NCBI GenBank assembly: GCA_027923505.1
Contig: BROI01000005.1
Location: 806,001-870,000, forward strand
Source: Mayamaea pseudoterrestris
Lineage: Eukaryota
Direction: 5' to 3'
Length of the DNA: 64,000 nt
Part shown: one piece after another, positions 6,226 through 11,725 of the stretch
How the letters are laid out: each line of letters starts with the position of its first letter
Position numbering within the stretch: the first letter of the stretch is position 1
Notes under the pieces: generated by a model
The model's database searches: none
Told to the model about the DNA's origin: nothing
The model's input: only the letters and a program-made list of their open reading frames with translations
Program-made: the position numbers and the translations under genes

Positions 6226-8229
6226 ATGCTGGTGGCTCTGTCGCGGCTCCTCCTGACGTCATGTTTGGTGCCAATCCACGACGAGAATGCATGGGGGACG
6301 CTGCTTCCAGTTTACGACAATCAGCAGCAACTTGCATGCGACCCCATCCAGGGCTTGAGAGTAGCAAAGGGTGACACTGCTGGTCCCATGCTGCAGAGTA
6401 CGAAAACACTTGGAAATTGGTCGAAAGCAGCGCCAGATGTTGACGCTGCTTCAGCAATCACGTCATCCAACATTGCCATGGAAGTTTGGATGACGCTTCC
6501 TCCGGCAAAAGACGACAGCGCTGATGACGAGCAAGAAACGATATTGACCATTGGCGGTCCGGCTGTTTCTCCTTCGACCTACCATGATCAAGGTGGCAAT
6601 ATTAACGACGACGACGATTACTGCAATCCCAACACTGACGTTGAGCTTTCCATTTACCAAAGACACTTGCTGCTGCGATTTCGATCAAGCAACGAAAACT
6701 CGCCTTCAACCTGCAGCACTCTGTACGTTTCCAGCGTTGACTTGGAGCCGAGGCAGCTCACGCAGTTTGTTGTCGTGTGGAGCAGCAGCAGCGAGTCGAC
6801 AACTGCCAACAACAATTCGCAGCAGCTATACCTTTCTATCTACATGAACGGAGCAGCAATATATGAACATGTTCTGGTCAATGCAGCGTCCGCCGCAACG
6901 TGGGCGGAAATCTGGAAACCAAGTAGTGTCTTGTGGCTGTTTGGAAATCCAATGCATCAGCAACCGTTCCGCGGCTCGCTGGCGCAAGTGACCATGTATT
7001 CTGGAAATGACAGCAACCAGCAGCACAGTGCGTGGGTGAATGAGCTGTATCAGACTGGAGTGGTGCGAACTGATCCACTCGTTCTACAAGCGGCACCAGC
7101 ACGAGTGGTTGCCTTGGATCAAGGTTCCGTCGAGCCTGTGGAGATTGCCATTGCAACGAGAAACGTTTCGCAATCATGGTTTCGCATTTCCGCAGAGCTG
7201 CTGACCGTGCCAATGCACGGTACGCTGCAGGGACCGCAAGGCTTGCTGGCGGTGGGTGATACTCTGGCGTTTCCGATTAGCGAGGGGGCAGTCAACAGTA
7301 CGGATGCTTTGCAATTGCAACTGAAGTATACACTTGATTCTTTGGCAGTCGACTATTTCAATACACCGAATACTGAAGCATATGGTAACAATCTTCAGAT
7401 GGCGCCGGAGAGTTTTAGCTATCGTTTGGTGGCTCATGACGCGGTGGGTCGCGAATTGGCGATTTCGCCAACAGTCCGTCAATTTATTTCAATTGTTCAT
7501 GTCAATCACAAGCCAGCCTTGATAGGACCGACCGCGGTCGATGCCGGCTCTTATAAGAGCAATAGCAACACTGCCATCATCACTGGTATTCTACTACATG
7601 ACAATGACTACAATATTGATCGAGTCCGAGTTGACGTTTGGGCCGATGCTGGATACTTGACTCTGGCAGCAAACACTGTTGAGTTGGCAGACTTTGACTC
7701 TTGCCGCGGACGAACCTACTCGCCGTGGCAGTGTATGGGAGACGGCTTGCGCAATCGGAACATGACGTTTATAGCCATCCCAAACGATGTCAATGCGATT
7801 CTAAATCACATGACTTATGAAGCCATGACGACGGACACTGCGGATGAGATTGTCATTCGCGTCTCGGATGGAGAAGGAGAAGCTTGTTTGAGCGCTGACG
7901 AGCAAATGAAATACACGGACGAGTTTGGTAGACCTGTGACAAGTAGACGACGAGAGTGCTTTCAGGTTGAGTGGCGAATAAGTGTTCCGCCCATTCAATT
8001 TGACTCTGGTCAAGATTCGTCGACGTCGACTCGAGGATTTTTTGGTACCAGGCTGAACACGGCACGATTGATCTTTTGGTTACTTGTGTTTGGATTTATG
8101 ATATGTTTTGGATGCTGCCTGCGCCGTTGCCCGAGATACTTGGCTCGCGGTGGAAAAGTTCACGTTGATGGTGATGATGACGAGTCGGTGGATCAGGAAG
8201 GCGGACACGCAAGGCAAGCTAGTTTCTAA
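6226..8229 (+). CDS. Single-pass surface protein with LamG/concanavalin-like beta domain and cadherin/Ig-like region
   Basis: 667-aa ORF; LamG-like motifs (MEVWM, LSIYMNG, FRGSLAQVTMY), VNHKP Ig-like junction, C-terminal TM (LIFWLLVFGFMICFGCCL) and a short cytosolic tail. The true start may lie upstream. Confidence 0.7.
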   Translation: MLVALSRLLLTSCLVPIHDENAWGTLLPVYDNQQQLACDPIQGLRVAKGDTAGPMLQSTKTLGNWSKAAPDVDAASAITSSNIAMEVWMTLPPAKDDSADDEQETILTIGGPAVSPSTYHDQGGNINDDDDYCNPNTDVELSIYQRHLLLRFRSSNENSPSTCSTLYVSSVDLEPRQLTQFVVVWSSSSESTTANNNSQQLYLSIYMNGAAIYEHVLVNAASAATWAEIWKPSSVLWLFGNPMHQQPFRGSLAQVTMYSGNDSNQQHSAWVNELYQTGVVRTDPLVLQAAPARVVALDQGSVEPVEIAIATRNVSQSWFRISAELLTVPMHGTLQGPQGLLAVGDTLAFPISEGAVNSTDALQLQLKYTLDSLAVDYFNTPNTEAYGNNLQMAPESFSYRLVAHDAVGRELAISPTVRQFISIVHVNHKPALIGPTAVDAGSYKSNSNTAIITGILLHDNDYNIDRVRVDVWADAGYLTLAANTVELADFDSCRGRTYSPWQCMGDGLRNRNMTFIAIPNDVNAILNHMTYEAMTTDTADEIVIRVSDGEGEACLSADEQMKYTDEFGRPVTSRRRECFQVEWRISVPPIQFDSGQDSSTSTRGFFGTRLNTARLIFWLLVFGFMICFGCCLRRCPRYLARGGKVHVDGDDDESVDQEGGHARQASF

Positions 8230-8351
8230 ATGTACTATGTGCAGTTGCATATGAACTATTTGAATTTGAATTAAGTTTAATTGTTTAATTGATGTTACGT
8301 TAAATGCACGATTTTATGATGTTATCATACGAGATGAGACAATTCGTCCAC

Positions 8352-10037
8352 TCAAAATCCGAACCTGCCGCCGCTGCCGCCTCCTCTTCCGCCACCAGAA
8401 TATGGCTCATTCAGCGGTCCCAAATCTTCTGCGGCCCCGTAAGAATCGTAGCTTGGGTCATACTCAACATCATATGGTGCGTCCGTCGCTCTTGGTGGTG
8501 GCCGATAGATTTCATTTAAATCCGCTCTTTCAATCGTTCCATAGGCATCCGCTGGAACTATAGCTCCATCCGTCGCCCGATAAGGGTCATATGCGCCATT
8601 CGGATACGCCGCACCATCGGTAGCGCTGTAGCTCTTGCCTCGCGGCCCGTCGGCATTGTCATATGCTCTTGCTCCGTTTCTACCATTGTTGTACGCCTGC
8701 GGACGTGCGCCATTTGGTGCTACGGGGGTTTTATAATTGTCGCTGGTCTCTCGGACTCGGTACAAAAAGGCGTTTGTCGGGTAAATGTCGTTTGGGTCGT
8801 TGTTTCTGTTCATCGCCCGGTTGTTCATTCTGTAAACATCGTTTGGGTCTCGAGAACCATTAACATACTCACTCCTGGCGCCATTCATTTCGCCACCGGC
8901 TCCAATAATGTCGTTCGGATCCATTGAGTTTTGCTTATGATCGAATTCGTGAATTGGTCTGGGAGCATGCGGCTTCTCCTTGACCACTTCGGGTTCATCC
9001 AATGTATACAAGTCGTAGATTGTGTGCAGCTCCTCAATATATTCCCGAAAGTCAACCTGCAGCCGATTCATGTCACCCGTCTTTGGGTCAAATACGCAGG
9101 CATGTATGCGAGGAGTCGTATAGTCGAGTGCCTTTGGGTCCGTCTGCGGTTTGGATCGTTCCTGAAAGGTTTCCACTCGCTGCCGCTGCACCACGCCCGT
9201 TTTGAACAAGTTGATGCACTGTTCAATCACGTTGAGCTCCACGAGTCGACGGTGTCGCTGCTCCGGATCGGAAATGGAATCAAGTTCAGTGCGATGAAGA
9301 CGATAACTGCGACATGGTAGAAAGTGAAACAGCATATGAGCCACGAGGAAACGTCGTGTGTTGTTCTTTGACGCCTTTGTCACTTACACATCCCGAATGT
9401 TTCGCAACCAATTCTCCAGCGGCGGCCCATGATCCTTTCGCATCATGGACGCCCGCACGCCTCCACAGTCATAGTGCCCGCAAACGATAATATGCGGAAC
9501 TTTCAAGACGCTCACGGCGTACTGAAGACCCGACATTAAATTAAAATCGGTGTTGACCACCATGTTTGCCACGTTTCGTAGCACAAAGACCGTTCCGGCG
9601 TCTTCGCCCATGATTTCGTTCGCTGGTACTCGAGCATCAGCGCAGCCTAATGATATGTAAAGAATTGGAATTGTTAGCGAGCATGTTCATCTTAAACAGT
9701 CAGCTTAGCAGTCATCAATTTGTCTTCGCAGCAACGCACCAATCCACAAGTACTTTGGCGCATGACCGCTTCCAAGCTTGTCGAAGAACTCGTGATCCTC
9801 GGCCAGTTTTCCATACTTCCATCGCTTGTTGGCTTCAAAAATGTTGGAAATGAATCGATCCGGCTTGCCCGTCCAGCCAAAGGAGGTAGGGCCGAGTGCC
9901 GTTGTACTGCGGCTGCTGCATGATGTTTGTTGGTGAAATTGTGAATTAGCAAACTGCCTCGGCTGGAAAGCTAGAGATTCGCCACTAAGTAGCGATATTA
10001 TCAGTATTATGCTTGATATGGATTGGGTAATGGTCAT
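8352..10037 (-). CDS. Plastid-targeted beta-carbonic anhydrase with long C-terminal extension; exons 10037-9740, 9646-9388, 9306-8352 (503 aa)
   Basis: Splicing two GT-AG introns (9739-9647, 9387-9307) restores YLWIG-CADARVP...RNVAN...CGHYDCGG...RDV-YRLH, which contains the beta-CA Zn ligands Cys/His/Cys and the Asp-Arg dyad. Signal peptide followed by SLA-FQP. Confidence 0.95.
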
Positions 10038-10316: not shown

Positions 10317-10384
10317 ACGTCAGTCAATCAGTACTGGTGCGACTTTCTGTCGAACTATGCTGTCGCAGCGCAATCGATTGACGT
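10317..10384. promoter_or_regulatory. Two bZIP/CCRE-type cores (ACGTCA 10317-10322, TGACGT 10379-10384) in the beta-CA / BTB divergent promoter
   Basis: The hexamers are seen directly and match the CO2/cAMP-responsive element cores described for the Phaeodactylum ptca1 promoter. Short motifs can occur by chance. Confidence 0.35.
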
Positions 10385-10525
10385 TCCGCGAGCTGCCCCA
10401 CGGATGGTCCGTGCAGCTGGTTTGTACATTAACAATCATAGTTAAGACTTTTGTCGATCGCCCGAGAGTGGTCAGGCGCATCGCGCGTCGCGTCGACTCT
10501 CACATTCGCTTCTGCTTTTCGCACC

Positions 10526-11725
10526 ATGGCCGCCAAGGATCGCGTCGCAATGGCCAAACAGGGGTCCAGCAAGCAACGAAACCTTGTCACTGCTCCCAGC
10601 AAGACGCAGCTGCAAGTCCCGCAATCGAACAGCGACAAGGAGAATCAATCAAACAATCATGCATGGACAGCAGCTGGAGCATTGAGCTGGCGCATGCCTC
10701 GGAAAACAAGTCACAGCGACTATACGATTGAAATCAAGTATTTGGGCCCGCGCAAGGATTGCTATGGAAACATGCATGTCATGACAAAATATTACCATGT
10801 ACACAAATGCGTCATTGCCGTCGGTCCGAGAAAGGCGGGATTTTTCGATTCTTTGTTCACAAGCGGCGGGAGTGTTCCGCTAGGCAACGCAGCGCATGGC
10901 AGCTCATATTCCTTTCATGCGCTGGTCGCTATAGCCTTTCCTCAGTTTCTGGATTATGTTTACGCTTCGTCTGCTCCATTGAACATTACGACGGAAACGG
11001 CTACGGCGCTCTATTTCCTGGCCAAGCATTTCGACGTTCAACCCATGTTATCGGAAGCGCATGTCTTTTGGAAGCGAAACATTGAGAGCGCCTACACTTG
11101 CGGAACCTACTACAAGCATGCCTACCTTTTGCAGCAAGATGATATATTCCAGGTTGCGACGAGCGTTTGTTGCGACAAGGTTTGGAGCCTTCCAAAAACA
11201 TCGCAACTGCTACATCTTCCGCACTTTAGTTTCTGGCTCAAGCTCGCCGCACGTGGTCCATTGTCAACGAAACATTTAAATGACTATATCCCGTCGACTG
11301 GAAATTCTAGCAATGGTGACGATACAAAACTCTTTGTCTCGTTTGTGAGCGGCGAATACAGCCGACGATTGAGCATTCTAATTGTTGAATTCTGTCGCAT
11401 TCACCTTTCCACCATGAACAAGGCAACCTTTCAAATGCTAACGTCTGCACGATCGCTTCCAGTCATTGACATCAAGGCCGCTCTTGGAATGATGGAGCTT
11501 GAACGTCAGCTCGTTGCTGCAACCGATAGAGCTACCATGTCCTCGTTGCAGGAACGATGCATCGACGCGGTTGCACGGGACTGGCATCGGATTGACGTTG
11601 CGCAGCGAGTAGATGTTATCAAAACGCTTCGAAAGCAATGCGCGATGTGTCTGGAGGAGCTCCTAGTTCGAGTCATGGCTGTCGTGGAGGAACAATGCTT
11701 GTATGAGCGCGTCTCGTCAGTTTGA
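10526..11725 (+). CDS. BTB/POZ-domain protein (tandem copy 1)
   Basis: LSWRM...SDYTIEI...YHVHKC...FPQFLDYVY...ATALYFLAKHFD; first ATG at 10526. Confidence 0.85.
   Translation: MAAKDRVAMAKQGSSKQRNLVTAPSKTQLQVPQSNSDKENQSNNHAWTAAGALSWRMPRKTSHSDYTIEIKYLGPRKDCYGNMHVMTKYYHVHKCVIAVGPRKAGFFDSLFTSGGSVPLGNAAHGSSYSFHALVAIAFPQFLDYVYASSAPLNITTETATALYFLAKHFDVQPMLSEAHVFWKRNIESAYTCGTYYKHAYLLQQDDIFQVATSVCCDKVWSLPKTSQLLHLPHFSFWLKLAARGPLSTKHLNDYIPSTGNSSNGDDTKLFVSFVSGEYSRRLSILIVEFCRIHLSTMNKATFQMLTSARSLPVIDIKAALGMMELERQLVAATDRATMSSLQERCIDAVARDWHRIDVAQRVDVIKTLRKQCAMCLEELLVRVMAVVEEQCLYERVSSV

Follow-up and report, generated by a model that had tools for sequence, protein, structure and literature searches.

In red-type (diatom) pyrenoids, a C-terminal helix is the only recruitment element described for stromal beta-carbonic anhydrases (beta-CAs), and PYCO1 is the only known Rubisco linker. 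The helix is that of PtCA1 and PtCA2 from Phaeodactylum tricornutum, which are called pyrenoid-localised in the parts of PMC11142338, PMC7215798, and the PyShell preprint drawn on here; the first of these, citing Kitao and Matsuda 2009, gives the helix as required for this localisation. PYCO1, according to the portions of PMC10288592 used here, is a stand-alone protein of six repeats of ~80 amino acids (aa) with an isoelectric point (pI) of 10.03 that is mostly classed as prion-like, and PtCA1 was always recovered with Rubisco in the pull-downs of the same study. Here, we consider a beta-CA gene on the minus strand of a 64,000-nucleotide stretch of contig BROI01000005.1 of Mayamaea pseudoterrestris (the window, by which we mean the whole stretch of DNA that was analysed), whose product shares the enzyme class, the helix (...IYDLY), and a plastid presequence with PtCA1 and PtCA2 and then continues for 217 residues past the helix. 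The gene is intact and transcribed, and the spliced transcript form specifies a 503-aa beta-CA with this tail. We favor, with somewhat less than even confidence, the reading that the tail is a multivalent, low-affinity sticker-spacer module that would partition the enzyme into the Rubisco condensate as a client.

As read from the minus strand, the gene has three exons of 298, 259, and 952 nt (503 codons), with its ATG at 10037..10035 and a TGA stop codon at 8352..8354 (-). Exon 1 (9740..10037, -) encodes a signal peptide, a transit-like stretch, and the first portion of the CA core, as far as ...KYLWI(G). Read by eye, the N terminus has a hydrophobic core ending in ...SLA, followed directly by FQP... 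and then by a Ser/Thr-rich, acid-free stretch. This presequence fits the stramenopile (diatom-type) bipartite plastid type, with Phe at position +1 of the predicted cleavage site; the PyShell preprint, in the part used here, gives such presequences as an endoplasmic reticulum element plus ASAFAP. Exon 2 (9388..9646, -) encodes the catalytic core and matches Pfam family Pro_CA (PF00484) at 109.2 bits (cut-off 25.7; E 3.2e-31). The protein also matches 35 solved beta-CA chains, the best being 1ddz_A at E 3.9e-51, which bears out its assignment to the beta-CAs in a preliminary description of this DNA. Beta-CAs are defined by Cys-His-Cys zinc ligands together with an Asp/Arg dyad, and both zinc-site elements, C-A-D-A-R and H-Y-D-C, were found by eye in the exon 2 translation against the consensus, within GCADAR (Cys and the Asp/Arg dyad) and GHYDCGG (His and Cys). 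Pfam returned no match on exon 1 or exon 3, and the 64-kb window holds no second CA. The nearest named relatives, among the matches listed, are from diatoms, one bolidophyte, one pelagophyte, and one haptophyte, a spread that points to a stramenopile alga, most likely a diatom.

The coding part of exon 3 runs in full from 9306 to 8355, within a minus-strand open reading frame (ORF) of 343 aa at 9383..8352. Its first part (9006..9306, -) encodes the C-terminal third of the CA domain, including the amphipathic helix DFREYIEELHTIYDLY (9053..9006), which lies immediately N-terminal to the tail. In the exon-3 translation (P0001), AlphaFold2 predicts this helix at residues 86-97; it has a hydrophobic moment of 0.45, compared with a shuffle mean of 0.24, and its sequence is conserved with that of P0059, the P. 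tricornutum enzyme. Over the portion of exon 3 that both have, P0059 shows 57% identity but stops 9 residues past the helix, whereas the window protein adds 217. The preliminary description was thus right about a PtCA-type amphipathic helix ahead of the tail and about a Phaeodactylum enzyme that ends near its C-terminal helix, the localisation role of which is taken from PMC11142338 as far as that source was available. Its placement of the tail is also exact: codon 101 of P0001 begins at 9005, the final codon ends at 8355, and the stop follows at 8354..8352. By sequence, the protein belongs to a known enzyme class, close to the PtCA type, with a C-terminal extension of an undescribed kind; in a literature search that left most subscription journals outside, we found no description of a long disordered tail on a diatom beta-CA.

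Contigs from four sequencing runs of unrecorded library type (X1-X4) were aligned to the window. Intron 1 (9647..9739, -; 93 nt, GT..AG) is absent from one contig each in X2, X3, and X4, in which 9740 is joined to 9646, and intron 2 (9307..9387, -; 81 nt, GT..AG) is absent from X2, X3, and X4 contigs in two allelic forms. Both introns are kept in X1, the longest contig of which is 56 kb. Because the skips in X2-X4 match the GT..AG ends read from the minus strand and depth is zero in the intergenic bins 8162..8323, we infer that these three runs are complementary DNA (cDNA)-like, and that X1, since it retains the introns and has long contigs, is DNA-like. The tail is covered at 8397..9305 in X2, at 8364..9305 in X4, and at 8358..8720 plus 8722..9305 in X3, where the latter segment is joined to 9388..9488; no joint or indel within the tail was found in the contigs of any of the four runs. 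On this inferred cDNA nature of X2-X4, the spliced form keeps the tail, which speaks against the case raised in the preliminary description that the tail is spliced out. The last 1-14 codons and the 3' untranslated region lie outside the X2-X4 contigs, which end 4-43 nt short of the stop; contigs cannot show RNA ends and drop rare variants, and a minor isoform may exist.

Translation of the tail is suggested by its reading frame, which stays open for 217 codons, compared with 2-14 stops in each of the five alternative frames, and by the relative P0002, which has an open frame of 279 tail codons and the tail of which aligns with that of P0001 across 11 gap blocks, all necessarily in frame. These observations bear on the reading that the mature protein lacks the tail, either through cleavage after import (for example, near the PHAP motif considered below) or through rare translation. 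PHAP is conserved at the domain boundary, disordered proteins of the PYCO1 type are reported to be very protease-sensitive in vitro (PMC10288592, in the portions used here), and the X2-X4 contigs do stop before the end of the tail, within the limits of contigs just given. Set against this are the frame kept over 217 and 279 codons in two lineages with only in-frame indel blocks, the conservation of motifs, which would not be expected of a segment thrown away without a role, and the uninterrupted tail in four runs. We give loss of the tail little chance.

The tail (8355..9005, -) is acidic, Tyr-rich, and predicted to be disordered. It opens with a conserved linker, TLDEPEVVKEKPHAPRP (8955..9005, -), which contains PHAP and is near-identical in P0002, P0004, and P0005. 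Its most frequent residues are Gly (25), Ala (24), Pro (22), Asp (21), Asn (21), Arg (18), Tyr (18), and Glu (12), with no Trp and no Cys; 23 Lys and Arg stand against 33 Asp and Glu, giving a pI of 4.78, a net charge of -11 at pH 8, and a grand average of hydropathy (GRAVY) of -1.12. Aromatic residues make up 22 of the 217 positions (10%). A motif of the form D-x-N-[DE]-hydrophobic-aromatic occurs in four copies on the minus strand: DPNDII (8904..8921), DPNDVY (8832..8849), DPNDIY (8781..8798), and DLNEIY (8505..8522). The first three, located by motif scan, are also repeats at the DNA level (the first is repeat D1), the third aligns with DPNDFY in P0002, and the fourth lies in a block, DLNEIYRPP.RATD, that is conserved in P0002. 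The best-conserved island, SATDGAAYPNGAYDPYRATDGA (8562..8624, -), holds both copies of ATDGA (8610..8624 and 8562..8576), and the tail ends in a Gly/Arg stretch, GGGRGGGSGGRFGF (8355..8396, -), that is not conserved in P0002.

All motifs listed in the preliminary description were found, as was this Gly/Arg end. The counts, four for D-x-N-[DE], three NGAR plus one NGAY, and two ATDGA plus one ATDA, were reached by none of 20000 composition-preserving shuffles (shuffle means 0.0014, 0.045, and 0.0099, respectively), a result that indicates non-randomness and not a calibrated probability, the motifs having been picked after the sequence was viewed. None of them occurs elsewhere in the six frames of the window. 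The term "repeat-rich" holds for these short, dispersed motifs but not for a tandem array: Tandem Repeats Finder returned 0 rows, and the only repeats at the DNA level are an 18-nt unit in three copies (72-100% identical) and a 12-nt unit in two. The claim of disorder stands as a prediction. AlphaFold2, run on exon 3 with a 42-row alignment, placed two short helices up to residue 125 of P0001 and, after 126, nothing save one 3-residue turn, with a predicted local distance difference test score mostly <50; the model contains a partial enzyme domain and is silent on how the tail might contact the enzyme. The spacing of aromatic residues is more even than expected, with a coefficient of variation of 0.62 compared with 0.89 in shuffles, and 3.5% of shuffles are equally even.

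Relatives that share the tail are very few. The exon-3 query matched 323 proteins at E <=0.001, and among the matches listed P0002 alone spans the full query, at 60% identity; the other matches, judged from the best 120 of the 323, cover <=48% of the query, which is the enzyme part only. A word-indexed search with the tail alone gave one match, P0002 (5.3e-24), and an exhaustive HMMER search of 1.84 billion representatives gave P0002 (6.3e-34) and P0122 (2e-5). P0122 was rejected as a tail relative: it is a repeat protein of 724 aa, and its match, 36 residues resembling NGDGAYDAGD, was judged compositional. A profile built from three tails returned only its own members P0002 and P0005 from 8000 scored candidates of 56-459 aa. 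Searches of the tail against PDB gave nothing at E up to 10, and those against the ESM Atlas gave no usable match. Relatives of the enzyme are encoded at 46 metagenome loci, none of which aligned past query residue 127 and among which the P0002 locus is not represented. L008, at 71% identity, was likewise set aside as a tail carrier; an extra intron precedes its end, ...EDKPHAPQAE, and the tail is short.

Across the family, tail length ranges from 2 to 279 aa in the 81 sequences in which the helix could be located (query included). Eight tails are at least 100 aa long. Five of these are of low complexity (the window protein, P0002, P0004, P0005, and P0010), with pI values of 4.16-5.48, 8.7-13.4% aromatic residues, and little Lys; P0053 has a different, basic tail, and in P0066 and P0079 the helix is followed by a folded domain of ~260-270 aa at the C terminus (listed as PF22486 in the case of P0066). 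The tails of P0004, which is Gln/Asn/Gly/Tyr-rich, and P0010 are unrelated in sequence to that of the window protein. The fraction of shuffles as even in aromatic spacing is 0.035 for P0001, 0.006 for P0002, 0.108 for P0005, 0.000 for P0004, and 0.040 for P0010. A tree of 92 shared columns, from which P0005 was excluded for its short core and the backbone of which is weakly supported, contains the clade (P0004,(P0001,P0002)) with support of 99/91; its three members have in common a long, acidic, Tyr-rich tail. P0059 and the other PtCA1-like sequences, which lack PHAP and have tails of 9 aa throughout, form a separate clade (100/100) that does not include the window protein. On this tree, long tails require at least two, and probably four, changes. 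Two further observations concern the same set of sequences. The P0010 tail (218 aa, 9 Trp, 33 Arg) has motifs such as R-x-E-W and S-R-W-Q and in style stands closer than the window tail to the Rubisco-binding motifs of PYCO1 and EPYC1, which are built on Trp. Other arrangements of the family include two CA domains in tandem in P0003 and L016 and an N-terminal PF02037 domain in P0029.

The comparison of P0001 with P0002 shows how unevenly the protein has changed. The enzyme parts are identical at 97 of 100 positions, and the tails are 46-54% identical (112/241, or 46%, by BLASTP); when the first 25 tail residues are set aside, identity extends to 90 of 192 positions (~47%). In one MAFFT alignment, on which all residue counts rest, Tyr is kept at 14 of 18 positions (Fisher p 0.0065 against the rest), Asp at 15 of 19 (p 0.0035), and Pro at 13 of 18 (p 0.027); Gly is kept at 10 of 25 (p 0.52), Asn at 6 of 21 (p 0.10), and Ser at 2 of 10 (p 0.11). 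The conserved residues gather in islands (TLDEPEVV.EKPHAPRPI.EFDH, DPND, DPND.YP.N, SYSATDG..YP...YDPYRATDGA.V, DLNEIYRPP.RATD, and PL.EPY), some with 100% identity over 7-10 residues, between which the sequence is scrambled. Weaker echoes are found in P0005 (DPNEVY, TTDGA, and TPDGR) and P0004 (DPNEDY). The preliminary description had made conservation of the repeats in orthologues a test of its proposal, and the answer is divided: the Tyr/Asp/Pro islands are kept in P0002, whereas the spacers are scrambled, only P0002 was found to match at full length, and P0005 shares the tail weakly. The sticker-spacer character that it proposed fares in the same way, supported by the retention of Tyr, Asp, and Pro and by the even spacing of aromatics but not by Arg. 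As a separate observation, the tails of P0002 (...GSNGFSY), P0005 (...GGTFSYL), and the window protein (...GGRFGF, 8355..8372, -) all have Gly-rich ends with terminal aromatics, though the sequence before them differs. Such an end may be a C-terminal motif.

The main rival explanation is that the tail is translated but has no partner: a fast-drifting, soluble, acidic "entropic bristle" that would at most prevent aggregation of CA clusters or set their spacing. It accounts well for a tail that is conserved only in P0002 and weakly in P0005, for the unrelated tails of P0004 and P0010, for the spread of tail lengths and the repeated changes on the tree, and for a chain that is strongly charged and hydrophilic with no predicted structure. 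It accounts less well for the selective retention of Tyr, Asp, and Pro in identical blocks of 7-10 residues amid scrambled spacers, for aromatic spacing that is non-random in four of five independent tails, and for a 10% content of aromatics that a bristle would not need. We consider the bristle a real but doubtful possibility.

How the favored sticker-spacer module would operate can be set out in steps. The enzyme would reach the plastid stroma, oligomerise, and cluster through the retained helix as reported for PtCA1 and PtCA2. Some 20 (~20) evenly spaced aromatics, set in Asp/Pro/Tyr motifs (D-P-N-D-x-Y, Y-x-A-T-D-G-A, and DLNEIYRPP), would serve as stickers and the variable Gly/Ala/Asn/Ser stretches as spacers. 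Oligomerisation of the beta-CA together with clustering by the helix would display many tails per particle, and the net negative charge would favor partitioning into a condensate of basic linker and Rubisco. The enzyme would thereby be a client of the pyrenoid, inside it or at its surface, and not one of its builders. Because the linkers described so far are basic, an acidic tail is more plausibly a client than a scaffold. A more specific version holds that the tail is an acidic, Tyr-patterned condensate-entry domain acquired by the stromal beta-CA within one lineage of diatom-like algae, the conserved stickers of which (D-P-N-D-x-Y and Y-x-A-T-D-G-A) bind a basic linker or Form ID Rubisco and bring about complementary-charge co-condensation into the red-type pyrenoid. 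We regard this version as unlikely, if attractive; were it true, the tail would be the first element in a eukaryote to parallel the disordered peptides by which CA is loaded into carboxysomes, and it could provide a portable "pyrenoid entry tag" for red-type systems.

Several points weigh against the proposal of a condensate-client module. The tail sequence is confined to a very small group, and the searches described above found no protein other than a CA with the tail motifs and so no hint of a common targeting motif. A large share of the tail may be drifting beside an enzyme part that is 97% identical, as judged from P0001 and P0002 compared as protein only. Arg shows no preference for retention (8 of 17 kept in P0002; p 1.0). 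Prion-like domains are polar, rich in Gln, Asn, Ser, and Gly, and have few charged residues; the window tail is unlike the classical ones, with 56 of 217 residues charged (26%) and 2 of 217 Gln (0.9%). Finally, since the window protein is not in the PtCA1 clade with its 9-aa tails, pyrenoid localisation of this enzyme is itself an extrapolation by analogy.

The PHAP motif within the linker (window 8961..8975, -) is far more widespread than the rest of the tail. A pattern P-[HN]-[AVL]-P occurs in 22 of the 63 homologue tails of at least 15 aa, compared with a shuffle mean of 0.3 and maximum of 3, counts that come from related sequences and are thus not independent. It usually reads K-P-H-A-P, lies 12-33 residues past the helix, is found in several clades, and is duplicated in P0026; it is missing from the PtCA1-like sequences. 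PHAP may be a conserved docking or processing site, and it could outdo the long tail as a candidate targeting motif.

PHAP also bears on whether the tail regulates the enzyme, as an autoinhibitory or pH-, redox-, ion-, or phosphorylation-sensitive element that folds back on the CA oligomer or its helix and tunes activity or clustering. The tail begins right after the clustering helix, its PHAP linker is common to many short-tailed homologues (the same 22 of 63), it is rich in Asp, Tyr, Ser, and Thr, and PtCA1 and PtCA2 are reported, in the part of PMC7215798 used here, to be regulated by thioredoxin, CO2, and light. On the other side, the tail has no Cys, no known regulatory domain or calcium-binding motif was matched in Pfam, PDB, or the ESM Atlas, and AlphaFold2 gave no confident contact between the tail and the part of the enzyme domain that was modelled. 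Regulation by the tail is, in our view, improbable.

The preliminary description loosely likened a late segment of the tail to a C-terminal motif of PYCO1. The portions of PMC10288592 available here describe a sticker, KWSPRGGS, that binds the Rubisco small subunit and in which Trp is essential, a second, GTGYNP, that supports Tyr-dependent self-association, and two weak motifs for the large subunit, AAEWGSMNQ and ASEWASMNT, the Trp of which occupies a hydrophobic pocket. Such a C-terminal motif does exist, as AAEWGSMNQ, but the resemblance of the tail segment AAEDLGPLNE (8406..8435, -) to it does not exceed chance. The best match of the tail to either large-subunit motif covers 5 of 9 positions, here with one extra residue and with Asp-Leu at the Trp site, and 302 of 3000 shuffles equalled or exceeded this; P0002 has 7 additional residues inserted within the segment and Gln in place of the Asn. 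Neither KWSP nor G[TS]GYNP occurs in any frame of the window, and the exhaustive tail search and the PDB search detected no sequence similarity between tail and PYCO1. Both proteins are disordered and carry Tyr in short repeated motifs, and a common compartment is presumed; PYCO1 differs in its basic pI, tandem repeats, and Trp stickers from a tail with a pI of 4.78, no tandem repeats, and no Trp. The absence of Trp, KWSP, and GTGYNP, together with opposite charge (pI 4.78 compared with 10.03), leaves the specific link to PYCO1 without support.

The same comparison bears on whether the tail is itself a Rubisco linker or scaffold, like PYCO1, EPYC1, or RbcS-STAR. An oligomer with an array of motifs would be multivalent, and RbcS-STAR sets a precedent (PMC13655443, in the part used here). 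In addition, a BLAST search described in the available text of PMC10288592 found no homologues of PYCO1 in other algae, and because PYCO1 is without homologues outside P. tricornutum, other diatoms must use another linker. A search for Rubisco linkers, described in the accessible part of the seaweed preprint, took pI >8 as a criterion. Described linkers (PYCO1, EPYC1, CsLinker, and SUPA1) are basic with at least three long tandem repeats, each bearing a Rubisco-binding sticker, whereas the window tail is acidic and disordered, has no tandem repeats and none of the PYCO1 motifs, and matches AAEWGSMNQ only at chance level. A linker would also presumably need to approach Rubisco in abundance, which is unlikely for a CA. 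We give this role very little chance.

Other features of the locus can be described briefly. Two haplotypes are present in the contigs, with many differences in exons 1 and 2 at 3-nt spacing (9426/9450/9453 and 9501/9504/9507 among them); X2 lacks 3 nt at 9912, and X1 has a divergent allele of intron 2. The tail has a single allelic difference, 8495 G>C, a Pro-to-Ala change in PPPR. The alga is probably diploid and heterozygous. An extra intron lies just before the helix-coding segment, after ...RL.V, in the relatives L008, L010, L012, P0010, and P0053 and is lacking in the window gene; in P0010 and P0053 it has been translated through as protein by gene callers. Upstream, TGACGT sites at 10317..10322 (-) and 10379..10384 (+), 280-347 nt before the ATG, recall the CO2/cyclic AMP (cAMP)-responsive elements described for the PtCA1 and PtCA2 promoters in the part of PMC11142338 used here. 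As a candidate CO2/cAMP-responsive pair they were rejected: TGACG[TC] occurs 114 times in the 64 kb, and two in ~410 nt are unremarkable. That ~410-nt upstream region is common to the CA gene and a divergent neighbour, a 424-aa ORF (10451..11725, +) with a BTB/POZ domain at the Pfam threshold (20.5 bits). The convergent neighbour (6226..8229, +) is an ORF of 667 aa in a single exon, with a hydrophobic segment close to the C terminus and a stop 122 nt from that of the CA gene; its only match is sub-threshold, to a ConA/LamG-like domain (E 0.0069, 17 bits compared with a cut-off of 27.6).

Whether a CO2-concentrating mechanism works or short-circuits depends on where CA sits with respect to Rubisco. 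A tail fused to the enzyme itself offers a concrete client-recruitment hypothesis for diatoms other than P. tricornutum, with PHAP as a second candidate element. If the tail and PHAP both prove inert, the locus would instead illustrate cleanly how a disordered extension can drift rapidly while the enzyme that bears it stays conserved.

Several known systems bear comparison with the window protein. Aromatic sticker-spacer low-complexity domains of the FUS/hnRNPA1 type are said to have been described by Martin et al. in 2020 and Wang et al. in 2018. The window tail resembles them in having ~10% aromatics, spaced more evenly than chance, in a Gly/Asn/Pro-rich disordered sequence, and differs in being 26% charged, with a net charge of -10 and almost no Gln, and in its presumed location in a plastid. 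In green algae, disordered extensions that contain Rubisco-binding motifs direct proteins to the pyrenoid, according to the available parts of PMC11142338 and the seaweed preprint. CrBST4 and other proteins with EPYC1/SUPA1 motifs share with the window protein the plan of a folded domain with a disordered extension that carries several short motifs; there, however, the motif is common to the linker and many proteins, whereas the window tail motifs are in no other protein found, and both the sequences and the Rubisco form differ. The hornwort RbcS-STAR is a Rubisco small subunit, the C-terminal extension of which acts as an innate linker (PMC13655443, as far as available). It is likewise a CO2-fixation enzyme that bears its own C-terminal condensation module, but the module sits on Rubisco itself, self-associates into tetramers, and is unrelated in sequence to the window tail.

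A further parallel is bacterial. Zang et al. are said to have found in 2021 that the C-terminal tail of CcaA binds CcmM. CsoSCA binds Rubisco through a disordered N-terminal domain, as given in the available part of PMC10614612. Both place a CA beside condensed Rubisco by means of a disordered terminal extension. They differ from the window protein in using one short, defined peptide and, for CsoSCA, another CA subclass; the sequences are unrelated, and binding by the window tail is hypothetical. The window tail is not a PYCO1 homologue; it may work like the disordered peptides that recruit CA into carboxysomes.

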